From IMG/VR virus record IMGVR_UViG_2061766007_000328: 38,331 nucleotides of DNA; one strand, written 5' to 3'. Position 1 is the first letter of the stretch; every line of letters begins with the position of its first letter. Of this stretch, positions 137-16,832 are shown piece after piece. The DNA is from an uncultured virus (IMG/VR IMGVR_UViG_2061766007_000328) (lineage: Duplodnaviria > Heunggongvirae > Uroviricota > Caudoviricetes > Crassvirales). Below the pieces are notes generated by a model. The model was not told the origin of the DNA. It did no database searches and saw only the letters and a program-made list of their open reading frames with translations. The translations under genes were made by a program, and so were the position numbers.

Positions 137-493
137 CACGAACTCGATGTCGTTGTTCTGGATGAAGAGATGCTTCTTACCGTCAAGGACAATAGCAGGA
201 ATGTCGTACTCCGCATTCATGTCGTCCTTCTGCACATTGTTCTCACCTATAGCCCCCGGAAGATGCTTGACCATCTTGTAGCGCTTGAAATTGATGCATA
301 CGATCTCTCCGGGCTTTACATCGGTGACCATCTTCCCTACCGCCACTACACGCTGGTAGTTGTTAAGGGAACCTTCCATCTTCGTCACGTCCAGAAGGAG
401 TCCTCCGGGAGCAGCGACTTCTCCAACGTAAGTGTTCGCCGTTGTAATCACACCCGTGAAAAGCGGGCGTATCTTCTTAATGTTGAATGCCAT
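137..493 (-). CDS. GroES/Cpn10-like protein, variant copy truncated by gap
   Basis: IKKIRPLF...VVAVG...VKPGEIV pattern; inverted near-copy of 9448..9849. Confidence 0.65.
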
Positions 494-496
494 AAT

Positions 497-965
497 CTAT
501 TTGTTCTCTTTTGGTATCACCTGTCGGGCTGATTTCTTACCATCCTGCCCGACAAGCCATACGCGTTCATATAATTCACTGTTCTTGAGTTTCCTTACCG
601 GAGAAGGAGTCCTACCGGAGAGGATTTCTGCAGCCATGTTCTCGACCTCACTCTGCGATAGCCTGCTCCTGTAGGAACTCCGAGGGACTTGTGTAATCTC
701 GCGTGATTCGTTTGCCCTCCATTTCAGATACCTGCTGTATGCCGGACCTATCCTGCCTATGTATGGTATGTTCCTCACCACAGCATACTCCGAAAACTTC
801 TCNNNNNNNNNNNNNNNNNNNNNNNNNNNNNNNNNNNNNNNNNNNNNNNNNNNNNNNNNNNNNNNNNNNNNNNNNNNNNNNNNNNNNNNNNNNNNNNNNN
901 NNNNNNNNNNNNNNNNNNNNNNNNNNNNNNNNGTACTCCCGCTCGTCAACAAGGTTCCTAACCAT
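497..965 (-). CDS. IHF/HU-like DNA-binding protein, variant copy with gap
   Basis: Flanks match 8977..9444 (MVRNLVDEREY...VIPKENK). Confidence 0.6.
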
Positions 966-1359
966 CTCTCCTGATAGGGTTCGTTGAAGAAGACCAGTCG
1001 AAGAGAATGCTGAGAAGATACCTCGGCTCGTCAGTCATGTGCGGAAGATACTGCTTGTTTATCCCTCCGTCAACGATGATTCCGACCTCACGGAGTTTGC
1101 CTATTATCATGCCGAAGTATTCCTTGGACATACCGAGGGAATCCCTCATGTCCTTGCGTGAAGTCTGAGACCACAATACCTCCTCAAGCACAGCAGTGTC
1201 CGATATGCTCTTGCTGAGCTTTACATACTGCGCTATTATCCTTGCCGCGACATCCCTCTCCCGTGACGTGAGTTTGTGGAAAGGCGCAAGGAACTCCACC
1301 CACAGACGGAAGAAGGAATCGGCGGTACACTTCAGGGGAATGAGATTATTTGTTTTCAT
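958..1359 (-). CDS. Winged-HTH-like DNA-binding protein
   Basis: Start MKTNNL; RKDMRDSLGMSKEYFGMIIGKLREVGII has HTH-wing pattern. Confidence 0.55.
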   Translation of the reverse strand: MKTNNLIPLKCTADSFFRLWVEFLAPFHKLTSRERDVAARIIAQYVKLSKSISDTAVLEEVLWSQTSRKDMRDSLGMSKEYFGMIIGKLREVGIIVDGGINKQYLPHMTDEPRYLLSILFDWSSSTNPIRRDG

Positions 1360-1691
1360 CCTTCTCCTTAGGCTCTGCAAACTGCTGCATGAAGGACATC
1401 ACAGCCGCCTGTATATTCTTCTTCACGAAATCCACGAACTGCGAATCGTAATTTTCCTTGTGATCCATCACCCTGAACAGGAGGTCAAGGGTGAAAGACG
1501 TGGTGTCGAAACTCTGAAGCTGACGCTCCAGCATCTGATTGCGCTGGGAAAGTCCCGCTGCAAGTTCCTTGAGTNNNNNNNNNNTGCTCCAGCATCTGAT
1601 TGCGCTGGGAAAGTCCCGCTGCAAGTTCCTTGAGTTTTTCGTAGGACAGCTTCTCCTGAGCCTGTCCGGCTTTTGTTTTCTTTTCTTCCAT
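1346..1691 (-). CDS. Hypothetical coiled-coil protein (internal gap with duplicated overlap)
   Basis: MEEKKTK...KLSYEKLKELAAGLSQRNQMLERQLQ...DENK rebuilt across gap at 1575-1584. Confidence 0.65.
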
Positions 1692-1711
1692 AGTCAAAAT
1701 ATGCTTTGAAA

Positions 1712-2128
1712 TTATCTGTATCTCGTCTTGAGCCTGGCGCTGCGTCTTCCTGAACCACGACGCTTGCCAGTCTTGTATATAGCCTTGCTGCCCTTCTGCA
1801 GAACCCAGTCAAGCCATTCCACCTCTTCGATGTCCGGCATTGACGTGCAGTCCAGCATCCAGCAGTATGAACCGCACACAAGGCCCATCAGGTCTAACCG
1901 CAACCTTTTTTCAAGATGAACTCCGGTCCCGTATACTGGTTCTGAAAACACGAAACCGAACTCGTGTACTCTCTCGGTTCTGCGGAGAATCCTACTGAGC
2001 CTGCGATGCGCAGCACGTCCCGTAGCGGCATTATAGTCGTTTCTGAATCTGCAATAGACGTCCTCCGGTCCCGTACATAGTCTATCTCCATAGTAGAACT
2101 CTCCGTCTATCTTAGTTATTTGTTCCAT
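1712..2128 (-). CDS. Hypothetical protein
   Basis: 138-aa ORF overlapping upstream gene in operon. Confidence 0.6.
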   Translation of the reverse strand: MEQITKIDGEFYYGDRLCTGPEDVYCRFRNDYNAATGRAAHRRLSRILRRTERVHEFGFVFSEPVYGTGVHLEKRLRLDLMGLVCGSYCWMLDCTSMPDIEEVEWLDWVLQKGSKAIYKTGKRRGSGRRSARLKTRYR

Positions 2129-2340
2129 TCTATCTCCTCACGCTTCTTCTTCCTCCTTTCCTCTTCCTCAAGCCACTCGTCAATGTGGCACGTAGCAATG
2201 TCAGTGGAGTAGCATTTACCGCAGTATGAGCCGTCCCACCCGTTACCAGCAAGCGTCTCGTCAATGATGACGCATAACGAATGGCAGCTCCTACAGTAAT
2301 ATACGTAATCCTCAGGAAGTTCAGGCAATAAGTCAGACAT
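2116..2340 (-). CDS. Small Zn-ribbon protein
   Basis: YCRSCHSL...YCGKCYST. Confidence 0.7.
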   Translation of the reverse strand: MSDLLPELPEDYVYYCRSCHSLCVIIDETLAGNGWDGSYCGKCYSTDIATCHIDEWLEEEERRKKKREEIEWNK

Positions 2341-2574: not shown

Positions 2575-5500
2575 CTAATTCTTTTTTACGTTTTTGGCTC
2601 TAAGAATAGCGGCTTTTACCTCATCATTGTTGCCATACACGTTGCGTAGGCGGTTGAGGATGCCGCCGTAGTCCATAGGAGTAGAGAAAAGGTTACGCTC
2701 ATAGTCCCTGCGCTTTCTCAGACCACGGTTCTTCTTGTCGTTATAGCCGAAATCTATGTTGTTGACCACAGTGTCAAGGTCAAAGTTCTTCAGAGCCTCC
2801 TGCATAGCCGGAGACTTACGCGTATATCCACCGTGACCTATGTTGTAGTAGTAACTGAACAGGGCATCCCTCTGGTTCTGGTTGAGCTTGTCGAAGTTTG
2901 GCGTGGCATTGATGAACATCGGAACCCTCCTGCTTACGGTATCCGCAAAATACTGGTCAGCCTCTGCCTGCGTCATGCCATTAGGGAACCTCTTCCTGAC
3001 ATCATCACCAGTAAAGCCGTAGCCTATGGTCCATACGCCATTGCCGTCCTGATACCATTGGTCACGAAACGCTTCTGTGTCCTTGATGTACTTGAGTATA
3101 TCGTCAGACGGGACATAGTTGCTCTGGACAACTGATGACTGCCCTGCTGCGACTGTCGGTTCTGTTGCCCGCATGAGATTGTTGAAAGGCCCAGGAACAA
3201 ATGTATCGCCTTCCCAGTGACCTACTCCTTCATGACCCTTGGCATAGATGCTATCGGTACTGAACGTAGGGTGATGCGGCTGTTTCCACGTATCCGGGAA
3301 ATGGAAGTCAGGGGAAGATACGTCAGCATCCCTGTTGTTGAGCCAGTAACCACGGTAATCGTATGCGTGAGAGTACGCATCCGGATTCGGATCTAACCCA
3401 AGAGTTGCTGCAGCATTGGCATACCAGTCCTGGAATTTCTTTTCTCTCCTGTCGCCCAGTTCTGTTACGAAGTATTTGCCGTTGCGCTTTCCTTTTATCC
3501 TTCCACCGTTCGCGTATTCTAAATTATTATATAGCGAGTCAATATCTGGGTCAGGGACCAATTTCCACTCGTCCTTATTATGATATCTTCTATCATAATA
3601 TTCAAAAGGCTTTCCTAAGCCAAAATGAAGCGTAGACTTCCCTTGGCCAAGACCTATATCCCACAAATCATAGAAACTCCTATATTCTGGAGTACCATAA
3701 TTTGCAAAGTTGCCTAACCCGCTGATATTCCCATAATCGCGTGTTTGAAATTTTCCAACATAGTTCATAGGAATAAATCCCTCAGATATCTTATCGTGTT
3801 CTCTAAGCTCATCAGCATGTTTGTCAAAATAATTTGACCAAGCAGCAATATTTGAGTCGGCTTTACTGGTCGCATAATCTAACCCATACTTATTGGCGTC
3901 TGAGTAAAAATCTGAACTTAAATAATCATCTCCGATTTTCTTAAGCCTCTTATATTCATTTATTACAGCATTGTTCTGTATGCCCTTATTTCCATACGGA
4001 TTCCGATAAAAAGTATAGTAGTAATCAGCACCTCCATTTGTGTTAGACGGAAGATATTTAGAGATTTTCACTGGGGCGCCAAACCCTTTTCTGTCAGATA
4101 TCTCCTGGTTCTTTTCTATTGGATACCCCAAATAATACCGCAACTGATTATAGTGAGTTGAATTTTCCGGCGAATAGTCTTCTTCTCCTGCACGCTGATT
4201 ATGATTAAGCACTAGTGCGTCTATTGCTTGATTAGCATCGTAGTCTTCATAGAAAGCAAGATTATTTAATGCCCTTTTAGAAATAAGTGTTTTATTCTGC
4301 GTTTGTTCATTAGTTATACCATACGTATCTAGCTCCTCCTGTTTCTCCTTCCTTAATTCAGGATTAGTAAACTCAGGATACTTTCTCTCCCATGCAGCAG
4401 CCTTACCAGACGCAACATCTTCTTTATATTGCCTCCCGTGTTCTCCCTCATAATCAGTGTTATAGTACCTGCCGTTCCAAAAGAATGTTTTCTGCCCTTT
4501 TTTGCGAGCATCTTTGTATGCCTCATCAAAAGTGTACTCCTTCCCCGAATATCTATCTGCGGTTAAAACCTCAGAAACAACGTCCACATTATTTACAAGC
4601 GGAGACCTGCCCTTAAGTTCAGCAGCTTTAGCCGCAATAGCCGCCGCACCGTATGCAGCAATAAGATCGCGCAATCTTTTTGATCCACTTTCGCCCCCAC
4701 CCCGAAACACATTTTTATCAGGATACTGCTGAAGGAAACCGCCGTCTTCGTGCCACTTGGCTGAATTCCTAGCGAAGTTGGCTTTGCGTACCATAGCAGG
4801 CGAATAGTTCTCCTTATGAGCAAGAACCTGCGACGCAAACGCCTGTACGGATTTACCATGCTTTGTCGCAGCAGCAGTGAATGTGCCCCGCTTGGACGGC
4901 TTGATGTGAATTGAACCCCCATCCTCCAAAAGAGTAGGGTCTTGTAGAGCAAACTTGAAACTTGAACCCGGATGTACAATTTTTGGGAATCCACCACGTT
5001 CCGGGTTCCATATAACTTCATCACCAACACCTCCGTCGTGTATACCCCTAAGAACAACACCTGGATAGTCCATACCAGGTGTATCAGAAACCGGCTTGCC
5101 AAGTAACCTTGATATATCATCGGTACTATGTATTTTATAACCATCCAATATCAATGGGTTATTGGATGTCATTTTAGCATAATCACCGCTAACACCGGGT
5201 ACATTACCATAATACTTTTGCATCAAAGTGATATTCTCAGGAGTCGGTTCAAATAGTTCTGACCAGTTCTGGCCCCTAACCGTGCTTATTTCCCGCAGTT
5301 TCCCCTTCGGAATAGTAAGCAAGTACATGTTTGGAATACCACCTTCTGTACTATAAGCCGAAGGAGTTTTTAGAGATGCGTTATAATTGAATCCCGATTT
5401 ATATCCTGCAGCTAAGTCGTGCGATCCACCAAAAAAGCTATGGTACCCGCGCAACCCACTCTGCCATCCAGGAACCGAAGTAAACCCACGCCAGAAATAA

Positions 5501-6798
5501 TCAACGCCTTCAGGATAAGCTTTCTTTGCTGCGTCTGTCCTAAGAGCCGCCGCCCACCAGTCCGGTATAGCAACCGGATCTCCGGATATGTCTCGTGCTA
5601 TTGTTTCAAGCGGCTCCATTTCTCCACGATTAACCATATCAAGTATCTGCTGCACCTGGATATGTTCCGGGGTACTAACCATAATATTATGTGGTATGGT
5701 TCGCATTACTTTGCCCTCATTCGGTGCAATTGTAGATGCTGATACTAAAGGTTGATTATATTCCATTGGTGTCATCCCAACCAACGGAGCGCTATTTGAT
5801 GATGGAGCAGCCTGTGTTACGCCTGCAGCAGATGACGCATTTGCCGAAGCACTTGCTAGTTTTTCGTTCTCGTAGAAAAGATTGAGATACGCCTGTTCTG
5901 GAGTAATGTTCTTGGAGACAGACTCATCTATAATACTATTAAACTGATTCTCCGACAGGTTAGGAAAACTCTCTTTTTTTAAGTGTTGGTACTTCAATGT
6001 CGGATCTGCCTTATGCTTCGCATTAGCTTCCGCCATTGTTTTCCAGTATTCCTGAGCAGACAAGCCAGCAGCTTCAGCCTGGTCACCAATAATGTCTGCC
6101 TCATACTCGGGCACATACTTGAAAGCGGTTGCCGGGCTGTCAGGATAGCCAGCAACCTTATTAAAATAATGCTCGTGCCCGGCAAGCCAGTTCTCCCACG
6201 CCTTTTGGTCATAACCCGCAGATTCTAAAGGACTCAACGGCTTCAACGCTGCAGAACCAGCAGTACTTATACTCTCAACCGGTTCAAGTTTGCCGTCCTT
6301 GAGATACATAGGGCCTTGCCAGGTCATAAGCAAAGTCTCTCCAGTATCTACATCCTTTCCCACACCGAGACCATTTGCTTTCGCATATTGCTTCAGACCC
6401 GATGCCTTCTTCTTTGCCGCACTCTCTGCCACCTTCTTCTCTATAGCCTTACTTATTCCTTTAGTTAACGCCTGCGGAGCCAGTGTCAATCCCATCATAG
6501 TCACACCAGGCAACACCTGTCCATTCGCCATCATCTGACCAGCCTCGTACATCTGCATCGGGTCACCGGCATCAGTGTAACTCATTATCTCCTGCTCCAT
6601 AGGAACAAGAGGCTCATCCTTTATCTCTCCAGGTAACCTCTGATTAGCAATCTTCTCAGATACCCTGTCGAACATCTTCTGCTCTCTGCGGCTGGCAATG
6701 TTATCCTTGGCGGAACGAACCTTATCTACTCCGTATTTATTGATAAGCTCCTGTAAGAGCAATGGATTAACTGGCATAACAAATCTACTATTAGTCAC
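2575..6798 (-). CDS. Large multidomain putative virion/ejected protein with C-terminal GH24 lysozyme and central ART-like domain
   Basis: 1407 aa (alternative ATG at 6777); IKDTEAFRDQWYQDGNGVWTIGYG...DALFSYYYNIG is a phage lysozyme; repeated xxGG motifs. Confidence 0.75.
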   Translation of the reverse strand: MTNSRFVMPVNPLLLQELINKYGVDKVRSAKDNIASRREQKMFDRVSEKIANQRLPGEIKDEPLVPMEQEIMSYTDAGDPMQMYEAGQMMANGQVLPGVTMMGLTLAPQALTKGISKAIEKKVAESAAKKKASGLKQYAKANGLGVGKDVDTGETLLMTWQGPMYLKDGKLEPVESISTAGSAALKPLSPLESAGYDQKAWENWLAGHEHYFNKVAGYPDSPATAFKYVPEYEADIIGDQAEAAGLSAQEYWKTMAEANAKHKADPTLKYQHLKKESFPNLSENQFNSIIDESVSKNITPEQAYLNLFYENEKLASASANASSAAGVTQAAPSSNSAPLVGMTPMEYNQPLVSASTIAPNEGKVMRTIPHNIMVSTPEHIQVQQILDMVNRGEMEPLETIARDISGDPVAIPDWWAAALRTDAAKKAYPEGVDYFWRGFTSVPGWQSGLRGYHSFFGGSHDLAAGYKSGFNYNASLKTPSAYSTEGGIPNMYLLTIPKGKLREISTVRGQNWSELFEPTPENITLMQKYYGNVPGVSGDYAKMTSNNPLILDGYKIHSTDDISRLLGKPVSDTPGMDYPGVVLRGIHDGGVGDEVIWNPERGGFPKIVHPGSSFKFALQDPTLLEDGGSIHIKPSKRGTFTAAATKHGKSVQAFASQVLAHKENYSPAMVRKANFARNSAKWHEDGGFLQQYPDKNVFRGGGESGSKRLRDLIAAYGAAAIAAKAAELKGRSPLVNNVDVVSEVLTADRYSGKEYTFDEAYKDARKKGQKTFFWNGRYYNTDYEGEHGRQYKEDVASGKAAAWERKYPEFTNPELRKEKQEELDTYGITNEQTQNKTLISKRALNNLAFYEDYDANQAIDALVLNHNQRAGEEDYSPENSTHYNQLRYYLGYPIEKNQEISDRKGFGAPVKISKYLPSNTNGGADYYYTFYRNPYGNKGIQNNAVINEYKRLKKIGDDYLSSDFYSDANKYGLDYATSKADSNIAAWSNYFDKHADELREHDKISEGFIPMNYVGKFQTRDYGNISGLGNFANYGTPEYRSFYDLWDIGLGQGKSTLHFGLGKPFEYYDRRYHNKDEWKLVPDPDIDSLYNNLEYANGGRIKGKRNGKYFVTELGDRREKKFQDWYANAAATLGLDPNPDAYSHAYDYRGYWLNNRDADVSSPDFHFPDTWKQPHHPTFSTDSIYAKGHEGVGHWEGDTFVPGPFNNLMRATEPTVAAGQSSVVQSNYVPSDDILKYIKDTEAFRDQWYQDGNGVWTIGYGFTGDDVRKRFPNGMTQAEADQYFADTVSRRVPMFINATPNFDKLNQNQRDALFSYYYNIGHGGYTRKSPAMQEALKNFDLDTVVNNIDFGYNDKKNRGLRKRRDYERNLFSTPMDYGGILNRLRNVYGNNDEVKAAILRAKNVKKN

Positions 6799-7500: not shown

Positions 7501-8572
7501 GCTCAGTAGTCCGAGTCATTAGGCAAGTTTTTCCCGCGCGTGTAATCTTTTGATTTTTTCANNNNNNNNNNNNNNNNNNNNNNNNNNNNNNNNNNNNNNN
7601 NNNNNNNNNNNNNNNNNNNNNNNNNNNNNNNNNNNNNNNNNNNNNNNNNNNNNNNNNNNNNNNNNNNNNNNNNNNNNNNNNNNNNNNNNNNNNNNNNNNN
7701 NNNNNNNNNNNNNNNNNNNNNNNNNNNNNNNNNNNNNNNNNNNNNNNNNNNNNNNNNNNNNNNNNNNNNNNNNNNNNNNNNNNNNNNNNNNNNNNNNNNN
7801 NNNNNNNNNNNNNNNNNNNNNNNNNNNNNNNNNNNNNNNNNNNNNNNNNNNNNNNNNNNNNNNNNNNNNNNNNNNNNNNNNNNNNNNNNNNNNNNNNNNN
7901 NNNNNNNNNNNNNNNNNNNNNNNNNNNNNNNNNNNNNNNNNNNNNNNNNNNNNNNNNNNNNNNNNNNNNNNNNNNNNNNNNNNNNNNNNNNNNNNNNNNN
8001 NNNNNNNNNNNNNNNNNNNNNNNNNNNNNNNNNNNNNNNNNNNNNNNNNNNNNNNNNNNNNNNNNNNNNNNNNNNNNNNNNNNNNNNNNNNNNNNNNNNN
8101 NNNNNNNNNNNNNNNNNNNNNNNNNNNNNNNNNNNNNNNNNNNNNNNNNNNNNNNNNNNNNNNNNNNNNNNNNNNNNNNNNNNNNNNNNNNNNNNNNNNN
8201 NNNNNNNNNNNNNNNNNNNNNNNNNNNNNNNNNNNNNNNNNNNNNNNNNNNNNNNNNNNNNNNNNNNNNNNNNNNNNNNNNNNNNNNNNNNNNNNNNNNN
8301 NNNNNNNNNNNNNNNNNNNNNNNNNNNNNNNNNNNNNNNNNNNNNNNNNNNNNNNNNNNNNNNNNNNNNNNNNNNNNNNNNNNNNNNNNNNNNNNNNNNN
8401 NNNNNNNNNNNNNNNNNNNNNNNNNNNNNNNNNNNNNNNNNNNNNNNNNNNNNNNNNNNNNNNNNNNNNNNNNNNNNNNNNNNNNNNNNNNNNNNNNNNN
8501 NNNNNNNNNNNNNNNNNNNNNNNNNNNNNNNNNCGCTACCGAAAATGGAATAATCATCTACAAGAAATAGAT

Positions 8573-9974: not shown

Positions 9975-10388
9975 CGGTCTTGAGTTGAAGGTTGCGGATG
10001 AGGCTTTCCTTATCCGTCAGATACGCCAGTTGTTCGAGGCTGACAAGTCCAAGAAGAAGGAGCAGTTCTGGAAGCAGATGTCGTATCTGTGGTTCATGTG
10101 CGATCCGCGCAGTACATACCAGTACATAACGGATGAAACCAACCGTTCCCTTGAGATAAAGGCACAGGAAGGGTTTTCTGTTGACTGGGAACCTACCGAC
10201 ACTCTTAAGGAGGCAATGGACATATACCGCAAGCATACTGTTACAACCTCCGCACTCTTACTGGAAGGTATGCGTAAAGGCATAGACAAGCTCAGTACAT
10301 TTCTTGGGAATACAGAGATATCGGAGAAGACCGTTGCTGCTATGACCAGTGCGTTGAGGCAGATACCGGAACTTGCCAAGGCTCTTGT
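9955..10388 (+). CDS. Hypothetical helical protein, truncated by gap
   Basis: MKLIEFDG...YLWFMCDPRS...; open to gap. Confidence 0.7.
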
Positions 10389-10958
10389 NNNNNNNNNNNN
10401 NNNNNNNNNNNNNNNNNNNNNNNNNNNNNNNNNNNNNNNNNNNNNNNNNNNNNNNNNNNNNNNNNNNNNNNNNNNNNNNNNNNNNNNNNNNNNNNNNNNN
10501 NNNNNNNNNNNNNNNNNNNNNNNNNNNNNNNNNNNNNNNNNNNNNNNNNNNNNNNNNNNNNNNNNNNNNNNNNNNNNNNNNNNNNNNNNNNNNNNNNNNN
10601 NNNNNNNNNNNNNNNNNNNNNNNNNNNNNNNNNNNNNNNNNNNNNNNNNNNNNNNNNNNNNNNNNNNNNNNNNNNNNNNNNNNNNNNNNNNNNNNNNNNN
10701 NNNNNNNNNNNNNNNNNNNNNNNNNNNNNNNNNNNNNNNNNNNNNNNNNNNNNNNNNNNNNNNNNNNNNNNNNNNNNNNNNNNNNNNNNNNNNNNNNNNN
10801 NNNNNNNNNNNNNNNNNNNNNNNNNNNNNNNNNNNNNNNNNNNNNNNNNNNNNNNNNNNNNNNNNNNNNNNNNNNNNNNNNNNNNNNNNNNNNNNNNNNN
10901 NNNNNNNNNNNNNNNNNNNNNNNNNNNNNNNNNNNNNNNNNNNNNNNNNNNNNNNNNN

Positions 10959-12115
10959 TCCTTCTGCAAGGCATACTCTAACGCTTATATCTCTGTTTTC
11001 TTCTCCTTCCTCAAGAGGGAGAATCCTTACTTTGAGTCCGCTCGGGGAATTGTCCGTACAAACCGCGGCAGTATATCCGGCAAAAGCGTCACTGGTTCGG
11101 ACATCTTTATTCTGGAACTCTATGCCATCAGGCAAATCGTATCCATACTTATTATAGTTTATAAATACGTACCAGCTNNNNNNNNNNNNNNNNNNNNNNN
11201 NNNNNNNNNNNNNNNNNNNNNNNNNNNNNNNNNNNNNNNNNNNNNNNNNNNNNNNNNNNNNNNNNNNNNNNNNNNNNNNNNNNNNNNNNNNNNNNNNNNN
11301 NNNNNNNNNNNNNNNNNNNNNNNNNNNNNNNNNNNNNNNNNNNNNNNNNNNNNNNNNNNNNNNNNNNNNNNNNNNNNNNNNNNNNNNNNNNNNNNNNNNN
11401 NNNNNNNNNNNNNNNNNNCGAACCCGATGCGCGAAGTTTTGCTGTCCTACCGGCGAATCCAATATGACTGACGGACACGTGCTTCATGCCGTCTTCTCCA
11501 ATAATCTTTATGGAATTAATCAGAGATGCATCCTGTGCTATATAGAAAGAAGCCTGCTTTGACTCATCTATAAGTTTGCATCTTATGGGCTCAAGAATAG
11601 ACGACTCCTCACATGCCCCAACCTTTACTCGAAGTATTGTTTCGCCAGCCTGACCAACATAACTGCTGCCTATCTGAGATATTGATTCCTGTCCGGATGC
11701 ATANNNNNNNNNNTGATGCATACAGGCCAACTGTCGCCCACGATGGACTTGTTTCAAGCCTCCACTGAGCCGGGGACTGAAGAACAAGCAATATATCGTC
11801 ACCGTCCTTAGGGAATATATAACTCGTCTTGCTGTCGTCGCCAAAAAGGAAAATCCGGAAATCAATATTTTCATATCCTATCGGAAGCTGAGTAACTGCA
11901 ACCTTTACAACAACAGTCTCATCGTTGCTAAGGCATATATTGACATCAGATGTCCTCTGGGTGTCATGACTTACTGCGGCATCGGCATTGGAGAGCCTAA
12001 GAACGTCACCATATTTCTCCGCCCTGAACCAATTGTAGCTCTGCGTTTCGGCAAGTTTCCATGTGTCTGTAGAGTTGTTTACCGTCACCGTTAAGTCTAC
12101 ATAGTCCTCAACCGA
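10959..12115 (-). CDS. Fragments of a BACON/Ig-like repeat protein
   Basis: Three fragments (10959-11177, 11419-11703, 11714-12115); TVTVNNSTDTW...NWF...RTSDVNI and FPKDG...WRLETSPSWATV...GETILRVKV patterns. Confidence 0.55.
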
Positions 12116-14124: not shown

Positions 14125-15060
14125 ATGGAAGAGATAAAGACCCTTTCTTTCTTTGGCGATAACGGATTGTCCAGCACATCCGCCAACCATGTCGCCAATC
14201 TTGCCAAGGAGGCGGTACGTAAATATCGCTATGCCCTTGAGAACATCAACTTCTGCAAGGAGAGCATTTCCGTCATAGGAGATAAGACCGCTACTGTTGT
14301 GGAAGAGGGAACTGACTATGATACTCTGAAGAGTATTCCTGGTCTCATTCAGAAGATAGCATCTGCCAATTCCCTTATTGCATTTCTTCGTGAGGCAATC
14401 AAGGAGAAGGAGCGTAGGTTCAAAGAGGCAAAGGAGTATGTTGATGTTGACAGGAGGAAAGCGCTCGATGCTGAAAAGATCGAGTTAGGAGTTGCCGCTC
14501 TAAGCTCAACCAAGGCACCTGTACGTGAAGCATATCCTACCGAGGAGGATGTCAAGCTTGAGTGGACTATTGGTGAGCAGGAAAAATACCTGTCGCTTGA
14601 GGCCGAAGCTGCTGCTCTTGGTAAGGCTATTCACGAGGATGGTCCTATCAGCACTGCACGTATAGACTTGATGAATAAGATTCTCAAGCCTAATCGTGTT
14701 GCTGCCAACGGGCGTGATACTATCATCTACCAGTATTCTCCACGTGTGCGTGTTGAGGATGTAGATATAGTATATGATTCGCTTCAGAAGCGTTTCCGCA
14801 GTGTCCAGGCTGAACTCAATGGTATGAAGAAGCGTATTGAGGATACTATCCTCGAGCGTAAGATTGCCATTGACAACGCATATAACGAGGCAATGCGTGA
14901 GTATAACGCCAAAGTGACTGATTACAGGCGCAGGGATGATGCTTTCGAGCGTGAGATGGATATCAAGCGCAAGGAACTCATGCAGCAGGTGAATGCGCTG
15001 AAGATAGTCATTCCGAACAGGCTCAAACCTATGTACGACCTCCTCATGGAGAACAAATAA
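14125..15060 (+). CDS. Long coiled-coil protein of unknown function
   Basis: 311 aa, heptad-rich, C-terminal KIVIPNRLK. Confidence 0.8.
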   Translation: MEEIKTLSFFGDNGLSSTSANHVANLAKEAVRKYRYALENINFCKESISVIGDKTATVVEEGTDYDTLKSIPGLIQKIASANSLIAFLREAIKEKERRFKEAKEYVDVDRRKALDAEKIELGVAALSSTKAPVREAYPTEEDVKLEWTIGEQEKYLSLEAEAAALGKAIHEDGPISTARIDLMNKILKPNRVAANGRDTIIYQYSPRVRVEDVDIVYDSLQKRFRSVQAELNGMKKRIEDTILERKIAIDNAYNEAMREYNAKVTDYRRRDDAFEREMDIKRKELMQQVNALKIVIPNRLKPMYDLLMENK

Positions 15061-15137: not shown

Positions 15138-15683
15138 ATGCCCGTACGTGAAGTATATCCTACCGAGGAAGATGTCAAGCTTGAGTGGACTATTGGTGAG
15201 CAGGAGAAATACCTTTCTCTTGAGGCTGAGGCTGCTGCTCTTGGCAAGGCTATTCACGAAGATGGTCCCCTCAGTTCTGCACGTATAGACCTGATGAATA
15301 AGATTCTCAAGCCTAGCCGTGTTGCTGCCAACGGACGCGATACTATCATCTACCAGTATTCTCCACGTGTTCGTGTTGAGGATGTAGATATAGTATATGA
15401 TTCGCTTCAGAAGCGTTTCCGCAGTGTCCAGGCTGAACTCAATGGTATGAAGAAACGTATTGAGGATACTATCCTTGAGCGTAAGATTGCCATTGACAAC
15501 GCATATAACGAGGCAATGCGTGAATATAACGCTAAAGTGTCTGATTACAGGCGTAGAGATGACGCTTTCGAGCGTGAAATGGATATCAAGCGCAAGGAAC
15601 TCATGCAGCAGGTGAATGCGCTTAAGATAGTCATTCCGAACAGGCTCAAGCCTATGTACGACCTCCTCATGGAGAACAAATAA
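15138..15683 (+). CDS. C-terminal variant copy of coiled-coil protein
   Basis: Near-identical to about 14515-15060. Confidence 0.75.
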   Translation: MPVREVYPTEEDVKLEWTIGEQEKYLSLEAEAAALGKAIHEDGPLSSARIDLMNKILKPSRVAANGRDTIIYQYSPRVRVEDVDIVYDSLQKRFRSVQAELNGMKKRIEDTILERKIAIDNAYNEAMREYNAKVSDYRRRDDAFEREMDIKRKELMQQVNALKIVIPNRLKPMYDLLMENK

Positions 15684-15687
15684 TAAC

Positions 15688-15930
15688 AATCAGCTAAGGC
15701 CAGTACTGAGTACTTGTACGAATCTGGTCTGAATGCCGAGGGTGGATATGNNNNNNNNNNGGCACAACCATTACTAATAAGGCTTATCAACAATGTCCCG
15801 AACTACAAATCTTTATGCCTATGAAGCGTGATGGTGGAGGCAGGGCTTTTGTTCTTGTAGTAGTTCGAGGTTTTGGTTCTGGTTCTTGCTTTTGGTTTTT
15901 GCATATCTGCCTTCGGCAAGTTGATTTTTA
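15688..15930 (+). ncRNA. Candidate structured ncRNA of unknown class
   Basis: 15734-15750 pairs with 15902-15918 (17 bp, 3 G-U); 15688-15695 pairs with 15919-15926; internal stems; spans a 10-N gap. Confidence 0.6.
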
Positions 15931-15953
15931 TTATTTTTGTAAAAATTATCATC

Positions 15954-16832
15954 ATGTTAGGAGCAATTATAGGTGATGTTGTGGGCTCGACGTATGAGTT
16001 CCACAATACTAAGGATTACAATTTCAAACTGTTCCCTGAAGGTAGTAAATATACTGACGATACTATAATGTCTCTTGCGGTTGCCAGTACACTTATGAAG
16101 TGTCCGAATAACTATACGGAGAGATATGAAGTATTTGAAGATGAAATGGTACGCCTTGGACAGATGTTTCCTGTTCCCAAAGGAGGTTATGGTGGAGGAT
16201 TCGCAAGGTGGTTGTTCAGTCCTGCACTTTTGTTTTCTTATGACGGGAAGGAATATCCTAAATCCGAGTCTGGAAGATTTCCTTATGGGTCTAACGCCAA
16301 CGGCTCAGCCATGCGGGTATCTTCTATTGGATGGTTTTATAGTGGCATTTCTGCATATAAGATGACTTGTCGTGCCTCTTATGCATCCGCTGATATTACC
16401 CATAATTCAGAAGAGGGACGTGCTGGTGCATGTGCTGTGGCAAATGCCATTCGTCTTGCTCGTGAGGGTAAATCCAAAGAAGAGATATGTGAGTTTGTAG
16501 AAACTCAGTTTGGTTATGACCTTCATAAGACATGGTATTACTGGCGTAAAATATATAAGTGGGACAGCAGTTGTAGCGGCACAGTTCCTCAAGCTATCAT
16601 TTGTTTCCTTGATTCAATAAATTTCGAGGATGCTATACGCAAGGCCGTGTCTCTTGGAGGAGATTCGGATACCATAGCTTGTATAACTGGTGGTATCGCT
16701 GAGGCCTATTACAAGGAAATACCTAGTTTCATGGCTCATAAGGCTATGGAAACACTTCCTGATGTACTTAAAGACATTCTCAAGAAGTTCCAGGATATAG
16801 TAGGATACTGGGACATAGTAAAATTAGTATAA
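15954..16832 (+). CDS. ADP-ribosylglycohydrolase (DraG/ARH family)
   Basis: MLGAIIGDVVGS, YTDDT, GSNANGSAMR, ITHN, GGDSDTIACITG motifs; true start likely ATG 15954. Confidence 0.92.
   Translation: MLGAIIGDVVGSTYEFHNTKDYNFKLFPEGSKYTDDTIMSLAVASTLMKCPNNYTERYEVFEDEMVRLGQMFPVPKGGYGGGFARWLFSPALLFSYDGKEYPKSESGRFPYGSNANGSAMRVSSIGWFYSGISAYKMTCRASYASADITHNSEEGRAGACAVANAIRLAREGKSKEEICEFVETQFGYDLHKTWYYWRKIYKWDSSCSGTVPQAIICFLDSINFEDAIRKAVSLGGDSDTIACITGGIAEAYYKEIPSFMAHKAMETLPDVLKDILKKFQDIVGYWDIVKLV

Follow-up and report, generated by a model that had tools for sequence, protein, structure and literature searches.

A modular protein with Gly-Gly-ending joints as a candidate polyvalent cargo protein of a divergent crAss-like phage

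The minus-strand open reading frame (ORF) at 2575-6798 of a 38,331-nucleotide (nt) window, the whole stretch of DNA analysed, from an uncultured virus of the Crassvirales (IMG/VR record IMGVR_UViG_2061766007_000328) encodes a protein, P0001, in which autonomous modules follow one another in a string. Short connectors that end in Gly-Gly (GG) join them, and an aromatic or hydrophobic residue often stands three residues ahead of the GG. Our preferred reading, to which we give a probability of about 0.6, is that a divergent crAss-like phage encodes in P0001 a polyvalent cargo (ejection) protein whose hinge joints tolerate cassette exchange. The phages that dominate the human gut are Crassvirales, in which protein loading and ejection are little understood. 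The locus exposes a simple grammar of crAss cargo proteins, in which GG joints link a conserved basic module of 57 amino acids (aa) to changing wall hydrolases and effectors; the module may serve as a portable tag for loading or docking, and the joints may be permissive sites of cassette exchange or possibly processing sites. We class P0001 with the crAss-type cargo or polyvalent ejection proteins, as a variant of a kind already known. An initial annotation had described a virion cargo polyprotein in which GG motifs act as protease or packaging signals and as swap points; the motifs and the borders were confirmed, the swap points and the cargo role gained support, the protease role and the second of two AT-rich stretches did not, and GG alone was not enriched. 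P-numbers denote homologues and L-numbers IMG/VR loci; features are collected in Table 1.

Gly-Gly joints and cassette exchange

The five motifs were found where they had been placed (LLEDGG, aa 623-628, 4915-4932; WHEDGG, aa 682-687, 4738-4755; FRGGG, aa 698-702, 4693-4707; YANGG, aa 1095-1099, 3502-3516; MDYGG, aa 1375-1379, 2662-2676), and when homologues were mapped onto P0001 (best 120 of 376 matches) all five coincided with clusters of homology breakpoints: 47 high-scoring segment pairs (HSPs) started at aa 628, 49 ended at 683-692, 40 ended at 700-703, 9 started at 1094 and 33 ended at 1373-1376. Breakpoint clusters fell at aa 612-628, 683-703, 1094, 1110-1119, 1196, 1228 and 1373-1376, of which those at 1110-1119, 1196 and 1228 are without GG; the GG at 457, 486, 589, 602, 922 and 1323 were not at breakpoints in this sample, 1323 lying inside the lysozyme fold. 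Since the 12 GG dipeptides of P0001 are about as many as its glycine content of 8.5% predicts (about 10), only the positions of the motifs are informative. Taken alone, that count would fit the view that GG near borders is coincidental in a Gly-rich protein, an extremely unlikely explanation that the family-wide statistics and the exact placement of deletion, permutation and crossover points contradict.

A hidden Markov model of the basic module recovered 304 distinct instances among all fetched proteins and locus ORFs. GG stood no more than 4 residues upstream of the module in 286 of 299 internal instances versus 1 of 4 N-terminal ones, and at its downstream edge in 266 of 276 internal versus 5 of 23 C-terminal instances (Fisher P = 1e-17 and 5e-4 for GG flanking internal versus terminal modules). 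Terminal modules end in ...KWNH followed by the stop codon or start with MSDIHIKPS, so the GG belongs to the connection and not to the module. In a 65-member non-redundant set, 28.9% of 933 HSP breakpoints lay within 5 aa of a GG, compared with 9.3% of random positions. The residue at -3 of the GG was aromatic in 136 of 401 collapsed contexts (3.5-fold, P = 4e-40). Outside the module, a second, independent set (144 representatives) gave 274 of 902 contexts (3.26-fold, P = 1e-70). All these P values overstate independence, since similarity to the query decided which proteins entered the samples and these are mutually related, so that the effect sizes are what matter. In the same 144 representatives GG occurred at 1.75 times expectation and seven control doublets at 0.45-1.38 times, and GG-to-GG spacings peaked at 7 and 9 residues.

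Module order among the homologues was not colinear, and deletion, permutation and swapping fell exactly at GG motifs, so that the proposed swap points are real exchange points. P0003 consists of aa 8-700 plus aa 1094-1407 of P0001, the cassette between FRGGG and YANGG being missing; the cassette-less junctions read ...FLKEYPDGG/RLRGK... in P0003 and FLQQYPDGG/RIKGK in P0007, which indicates that the cassette of P0001 was inserted into a YPDGG joint. In P0012-P0030 the lysozyme module ends ...YKYGG and is followed directly by IHIKPS, and in P0009, P0010 and P0069 a cassette end of the form ...DIDxLYxxFxxxxGG precedes the basic module. P0033 and later matches have the order lysozyme then HPTFS domain, the HPTFS domain coming first in P0001, while proteins of 179-256 aa in L062, L063, L064 and L070 consist of the HPTFS domain and a C-terminal module, those of L063 and L064 being encoded just downstream of the portal gene. 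Identity to P0002 was 34% over aa 8-125, 66% over aa 126-384, 39% over aa 385-622 and 48% over aa 623-687, then 87-100% from aa 688 to the end; the corresponding values for P0003 were 83%, 69%, 94% and 85%, then 57-84% outside the missing cassette. By these segment identities P0001 itself is a recent recombinant with a crossover at the WHEDGG joint. Its C-terminal tail (aa 1380-1407) resembles the tails that directly follow the module in L005, L010 and L012 (GG/LLQRYSPEQIREAISKIRK and a stop codon, and similar), a likeness suggesting that everything between module and tail of P0001 was inserted at joints. Lying outside folds, GG connectors would be places where in-frame recombinants survive.

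Base composition was examined by a two-boundary interval scan in place of single change-point segmentation, which was not significant over the ORF (10.1 versus a 95th percentile of 11.5). The best low-GC interval, aa 805-1093 (window 3520-4386, GC 0.367), gave a statistic of 31.6 at 9-nt steps and of 28.3 at 30-nt steps, against a maximum of 23.4 in 100 codon shuffles. One edge is the residue just before EYANGG; the other (4386, aa 805) is at no GG and lies near the end of the sub-module aa 740-795, which is separate in P0067 and P0068. Of the two stretches described by eye as AT-rich, that at 3520-4400 was thus significant and ends at YANGG, whereas that at 4930-5950 was not (28 of 100 shuffles reached its statistic), the best interval inside it being aa 466-565 (GC 0.383). 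G+C at third codon positions was 0.54 in the basic module and fell to 0.35 over aa 385-622.

The basic module and the proposed cargo role

The proposal that P0001 is virion cargo gained support on two sides: the basic module ties it to cargo protein 1 (C1, gp45) of phage crAss001, and its gene heads a late operon that leads to terL and the portal gene in relatives. A profile of P0001 and six homologues, searched against the PDB, matched residues 368-432 of crAss001 gp45 (7qog_M) at E = 3.2e-8, and the single P0001 sequence matched the same chain at E = 2.2e-4. By tblastn against phage records, aa 627-689 were 86% identical in crAss-like phage cr128_1, with weaker matches in cr108_1 and Rudgehvirus; the matches sit in a hypothetical gene after the 'stabilization protein' and upstream of the virion RNA polymerase (vRNAP) gene. 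The module carries 10 Lys and Arg versus 3 Asp and Glu in its 57 aa and was predicted by AlphaFold2 as three helices, with a predicted local distance difference test (pLDDT) score of 63-75.

A full scan of 1.84 billion representatives, one per 50%-identity cluster, placed the module in 2106 clusters at E<=1e-3 and 1270 at E<=1e-10, at every possible position in proteins of 106-1791 aa. Despite the clustering of the library, family modules were typically 70-90% identical to that of P0001, and at the DNA level only 92 of 195 columns did not vary when the window was compared with three crAss phages, third-position differences being numerous, a divergence that points to purifying selection on the module protein and not to recent transfer. 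The module is the core of the family. Among 75 scanned representatives the partner domains were crAss_CARG1 (16), SLT (11), Phage_lysozyme (4) and Phage_lysozyme2 (3), together with Glucosaminidase, LysM and Gly-zipper (one each); judged by these family matches, the partners are a portal anchor plus wall hydrolases. The 57-aa module is a better candidate for a packaging or docking signal than GG itself, and its sequence can be used to catalogue the injected effectors of crAss-like phages and apparently of some phages of about 410 kb.

In crAss001, gp45 is found in virions, stretched from capsid to tail (PMC10172136; PMC10136315). Inside the capsid, a domain made up of its residues 425-552 is attached to the portal wing; the tail barrel is lined by residues 214-245, and the authors take the intervening chain to span about 420 Å (PMC10172136). 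The match at 368-432 therefore places the module directly N-terminal of the portal-bound domain, in a stretch outside the resolved part of the maps. GG occurs in gp45 at 209 and 263-265, around the helix 214-245, and at 562, after the domain 425-552, so that GG motifs bracket functional segments as they do in P0001. Gp45 (PDB 7QOG chain M) has in common with P0001 the 57-aa basic module and its flanking GG, and is likewise a long multi-segment, probably stretched virion protein; unlike gp45, P0001 is without CARG1 and without a glycine-zipper or transmembrane segment, carries a lysozyme, the HPTFS domain, the cassette and a possible ADP-ribosyltransferase (ART)-like region, and is encoded upstream of terL and not between the muzzle protein and vRNAP.

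The arrangement of C1 in relatives of the window bears on this difference. A separate CARG1 protein was present in 4 of the 5 records searched, the genomes behind L006, L005, L010 and L061. In genomes G001, G002 and G003 the CARG1 ORF opens with the CARG1 domain itself (MGTFDTHGG...), and in G001 and G002 (L089 and L090, minus strand) a same-frame ORF about 280 aa long precedes it, containing a glycine-zipper segment that resembles the N-terminal part of gp45. This upstream ORF ends ...GG/TRIKIKR or ...GG/CVYRVKVK, then TAA, and the CARG1-first ORF of about 830 aa begins one codon on. C1 of the window's lineage thus looks split exactly where crAss001 carries the basic module, which here is found on the P0001-type protein; the split may be real, or it may reflect a past loss of the module or read-through. 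As module and CARG1 form one protein in some phages and two in others, they may well work jointly near the portal.

P0001 would, on the cargo reading, be loaded into the capsid. Its docking or loading near the portal would depend on the basic module, perhaps together with the tail, as may be the case in crAss001 gp45. It would then be ejected stretched, ahead of the DNA; the lysozyme would open the peptidoglycan locally and the remaining modules would act on the host. As flexible hinges, the GG connectors would allow the beads to fold, unfold and thread without depending on one another, and they need not be cleaved.

Internal or ejection proteins of podoviruses with wall-degrading domains (T7 gp16 type) and T4 Alt offer a general likeness, as they are stored in the capsid, exit ahead of the DNA and are muralytic or host-modifying. 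GG-bounded module shuffling is not known from these proteins, and no sequence relationship to P0001 was shown. Closer are the polyvalent proteins of Iyer, Burroughs, Anand, de Souza and Aravind (2017; PMC5512222), which combine several unrelated effector domains, typically including lysozyme and ART domains, are delivered with the DNA and have a late-gene context; the packaged ART T4 Alt is among the proteins treated there. Those authors' mark of at least two effector domains is found in P0001, which has the lysozyme, at least three further autonomous modules defined by homology and late-operon synteny. P0001 differs in having no zincin-like metallopeptidase domain (no Pfam peptidase, no HExxH), and in the part of PMC5512222 covered linkers and glycine are mentioned 0 times, GG joints and the basic module being undescribed there. 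The portable 57-aa module, the aromatic-x-x-G-G joint rule and the split-C1 arrangement were not found in print, including the parts of PMC10172136, PMC5512222 and PMC10136315 covered.

The lysozyme leaves a second function to be weighed. As the sole curated family match is a GH24 lysozyme, the PHROG matches are labelled 'endolysin' and CARG1 is missing, P0001 might be no virion protein and instead a large modular endolysin or wall-acting lysis protein that shares linker-bounded domains with cargo proteins. We consider this very unlikely, given a module homologous to that of a proven virion cargo protein, a gene that heads an operon running into terL and portal in relatives, and a size and multi-effector layout that fit ejected polyvalent proteins.

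Several points weigh against P0001 as hinged virion cargo. We infer its presence in virions from homology and context and not from direct observation. Pfam gave no match at E<=1 to the CARG1 portal-binding domain (PF25725) in P0001, its lineage has a CARG1 protein of its own, its gene lies outside the canonical C1 slot between muzzle protein and vRNAP, and it has no clear transmembrane segment (maximum 19-residue hydropathy 1.04). The AlphaFold models being poor, we infer the disorder of its joints from homology boundaries. Thirteen internal modules have no upstream GG, including those of L071, L077 and L078 (three contigs of about 410 kb) and L081, and the relatedness of the family samples tempers the joint statistics as stated above. 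GG is not always a hinge, as three GG lie within an ordered domain in CARG1-bearing relatives, and the hinge model alone leaves the conserved aromatic at -3 unexplained.

Further forms of the module were seen among its relatives. Three viral contigs of 409-413 kb (L071, L077 and L078; match 10001-10177) carry it C-terminally in proteins of 603-712 aa, with no preceding GG (ESSN/IEIKPSKKG and similar). P0122, P0129 and others have two copies each, joined in P0122 by DGKSG and not DGG. In L065 (aa 421-442) and L066 (aa 450-471) an in-frame TAA stands within the module where relatives have Gln (HGMGV-stop-EFA...), and the frame runs on to ...KWKH and a stop; the TAA of these two contigs may be recoded, or it may stem from a nonsense mutation or a sequencing error. 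The small module-terminal proteins of L044, L057, L059, L069, L070 and L084 have a common N-terminus, MP(K/R)R(R)SLE(D/S)AG, which may be a conserved signal or propeptide, and where neighbours are known (L044, L057, L059 and L070) they are encoded just after the portal gene. An unusually large fused form is the 3014-aa frame of L054 (3176-12220), with the module at aa 2280, CARG1 at 2075-2194 and three HExxH.

Possible cleavage or binding at the joints

If the joints were more than hinges, P0001 could be a true polyprotein whose aromatic-x-x-G-G joints are cut by a phage or host protease, releasing the modules during maturation or after ejection. Such a reading, which we consider unlikely, would account for a sequence-specific motif at module ends rather than mere Gly-rich spacers (aromatic at -3 enriched 3.3-3.5-fold), and the natural C-termini of module-terminal proteins (...KWNH and stop) lie within about 4 residues of the cut expected after GG. 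Processing by fused zincin peptidases has been proposed for polyvalent phage proteins, and P1 DdrB is known to be processed (PMC5512222). In relatives, HExxH (HEFLH, HELSH) was found N-terminal of the module in L006 8648-12406 (aa 235), L038 (aa 167) and L084 (HELSH, aa ~160), L084 also giving Aspzincin_M35 below threshold (E = 0.005, 17.7 bits versus a cut-off of 30), and these proteins possibly carry zincin peptidase cargo domains. CrAss vRNAP proteins carry a zincin domain, at which the note 'ZnMc_tr' of the Rudgehvirus record hints.

The structure of gp45 argues the other way, since its GG at 427/428, 434/435 and 447/448 lie inside the contiguous ordered domain 425-552 of mature virions, so that these bonds are intact in crAss001 virions; 'cleav' and 'proteoly' have 0 occurrences in the text of that paper (PMC10172136). 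P0001 contains no HExxH and no Pfam peptidase match, and peptidase families were found neither in the 39 tested ORFs of the window nor in the 75/144 new representatives, nor above cut-off in 19 locus ORFs. No maturation protease is named in the first 50 kb of the crAss001 annotation, where gp30 is annotated as an L,D-carboxypeptidase, and no paper joining Crassvirales, cargo protein and proteolysis was found.

Known GG-cutting enzymes differ in their preference. Adenain, PLpro, deubiquitinases and C39 peptidases want a hydrophobic residue at P4, whereas the aromatic of this family is at P5. Adenain substrates of adenovirus and pp220 and pp62 of African swine fever virus (ASFV) are structural or core precursors with Gly-Gly at module ends; compared with them, P0001 has no cognate cysteine protease that we found, has the aromatic P5 in place of the hydrophobic P4, and belongs to a crAss family of which one member, gp45, keeps GG intact in the virion. 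With these points taken together, GG as a protease signal found no support, although cuts made after ejection may still occur. The broader proposal, that crAss-type cargo proteins are genuine phage polyproteins, one chain being loaded via the basic module and cut by an unrecognised protease during or after ejection, we regard as quite unlikely. If true, phages would have their own version of the Gly-Gly-X processing seen with core precursors of adenovirus and ASFV, and the products would be free effectors, namely the lysozyme, an ART-like enzyme and uncharacterised cassettes.

The conserved aromatic may alternatively belong to bound linear motifs, with aromatic-x-x-G-G units docking repeatedly in the 12-fold portal/tail-barrel lumen or the CARG1 ring, holding register and acting as packaging signals. 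The motif is kept in segments too short to fold (mini-segments of 8-10 residues such as FLQQYPDGG), as the spacing peaks at 7 and 9 residues would also fit; in crAss001, GG brackets both resolved machine-bound segments and sits in the N-terminal strand of the portal-bound domain; and module and CARG1 are fused in crAss001 and separate proteins in the window's lineage. Structures showing such contact are, however, lacking outside CARG1, and gp45 245-425, which includes the module, does not appear in the crAss001 maps. We hold this to be an unlikely alternative to flexible hinges.

Feature layout, possible ART-like region and locus

Table 1. Features of P0001 and its operon in window coordinates
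Feature	Position	Strand	Remarks
Whole ORF	2575..6798	minus	1407 aa when read from GTG
N-terminal lineage-specific region, aa 8-125	6424..6777	minus	Common to P0003 (83%) and L006 protein (69%)
Variable, mostly helical region, aa 126-384	5647..6423	minus	Moderate folding confidence for aa 230-320 only
'ART-like' region, aa 385-622	4933..5646	minus	Conserved YxW[RK]G, YSTxGGxPN and GxE[VFI]IWxP; ART identity a lead only
Joint LLEDGG, aa 623-628	4915..4932	minus	Directly precedes basic module
Conserved basic module, aa 629-685 (IHIKPSKRGTFTAAA...NFARNSAKWH)	4744..4914	minus	Homologous to crAss001 gp45 368-432
Joint region, aa 682-702: WHEDGG, mini-segment FLQQYPD, KNVFRGGG	4693..4755	minus	Crossover with P0002-like sequence and cassette insertion point
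Cassette part a, aa 703-804: Ala-rich helix and FDEAYKDARKKG..FFWNG sub-module	4387..4692	minus	aa 740-795 stands alone in P0067/P0068
Cassette part b, aa 805-1093: low-GC (0.367) domain	3520..4386	minus	Missing from P0003/P0007; 98% identical in P0002
Joint EYANGG, aa 1094-1099	3502..3519	minus	Closes cassette
YDYRGYW/HPTFS domain, aa 1100-1227	3118..3501	minus	Autonomous module in relatives
GH24 phage lysozyme, aa 1228-1374	2677..3117	minus	T4-lysozyme-type E1242, D1251, T1257
Joint MDYGG, aa 1375-1379	2662..2676	minus	Follows lysozyme
C-terminal basic tail, aa 1380-1407 (ILNRLRNVYG...AAILRAKNVKKN)	2578..2661	minus	Like tails directly after basic module in L005, L010, L012; recurs in P0070
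Four small downstream ORFs: 2116-2340, 1712-2128, 958-1380, 137-493	137..2340	minus	Syntenic with L006 ORFs leading to terL and portal

Pfam gave a single match on P0001, the GH24 phage lysozyme (PF00959) at aa 1239-1367 (E = 2.3e-19, 70.4 bits versus a cut-off of 22.3); PHROGs gave endolysin families and a weak match of the basic segment to a family of unknown function, and a PDB sequence search returned lysozymes only (E = 1e-10). The sequence has E1242, D1251 and T1257 at intervals of 9 and 6 residues, which we take to be the spacing of T4 lysozyme. AlphaFold2 models of aa 1-720 and aa 600-1407, built from small alignments of mosaic homologues, had mean pLDDT values of 38.6 and 38.2, usable confidence being confined to the three module helices and the helical stretch 230-320; a structure search with the model of aa 1-720 (VIA-align) returned generic three-helix bundles only (Z<=6.3) and was discarded. 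The cassette (aa 735-1094) had no usable ESM Atlas match and no PDB match by profile, and no known relatives of the cassette and HPTFS domain were found. The lineage-specific aa 8-125 are possibly a virion-incorporation determinant.

For the region described at the outset as ART-like (aa 385-622), that identity is a lead from the ESM Atlas, with which its conserved motifs are compatible; Pfam, phage tblastn, short-protein and PDB-profile searches lent it no support. An ESM Atlas feature search placed aa 385-625 beside clusters with PF18760 ART-PolyVal on 17-54% of members, at scores of 0.90-0.91 and with 166-169 shared features, just below the guide value of 170. The motifs YxW[RK]G, YSTxGG and GxE[VFI]IW fit the R-S-E pattern, and the candidate Arg (FWRG) is replaced by Lys in P0002 and P0011. 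Pfam gave no match at E<=1 and a search for shorter homologues was empty; tblastn against phages returned only Gordonia lysin A (E>=2), a profile against the PDB returned lysozymes only and no ART structure, and a near-homologue search added only P0266-P0268. We put the ART reading of this region at roughly even odds. On the plus strand, an ADP-ribosylglycohydrolase gene lies at 15873-16832 (Pfam E = 2e-36; phrog_6572 E = 1e-53), and its product may be the eraser to a writer in P0001, the possible ART-like domain.

Sequence conserved among homologues opens at M8 (MPVNP...), residue 1 of P0003 being aligned to aa 8, so that the true start of P0001 is likely the ATG at 6775-6777, the eighth codon. 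The four small downstream ORFs match a run of consecutive ORFs in L006 at 36-67% identity, with similar matches in L010 and L012. In L006 these follow a P0001 homologue of 1252 aa (69% identical over aa 8-125 and 88% in the module) and run into terL and portal, a synteny by which P0001 heads a late operon and the left edge of the window most likely falls just short of terL. The canonical slot, with a gp44 homologue present, was found in 39 of 80 module loci. No homologues of crAss001 gp43, gp44, gp46 or gp47 were found in the visible window, which contains 2173 N in 30 runs (7562-8533, 10389-10958, 11178-11418, 803-932 and 26 runs of 10 N); as these make plus-strand genes near the P0001 operon unreadable, the absence of structural or protease genes from the window is uninformative.

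Neither megablast against phage GenBank records nor IMG/VR gave close relatives of the DNA or of the whole protein. The family-A DNA polymerase (PolA) of the window was nearest to those of crAss-like phages (Kolpuevirus 46%, cr116_1 39%, crAss001 33% identity), and the other strand carries replication genes (DnaB-like, Sak4-like, primase) in addition to the ADP-ribosylglycohydrolase. Two adjacent paralogous ORFs on the plus strand, 14125-15060 and 15138-15683, both match phrog_33003, with an OmpH-like (PF03938) match below cut-off.

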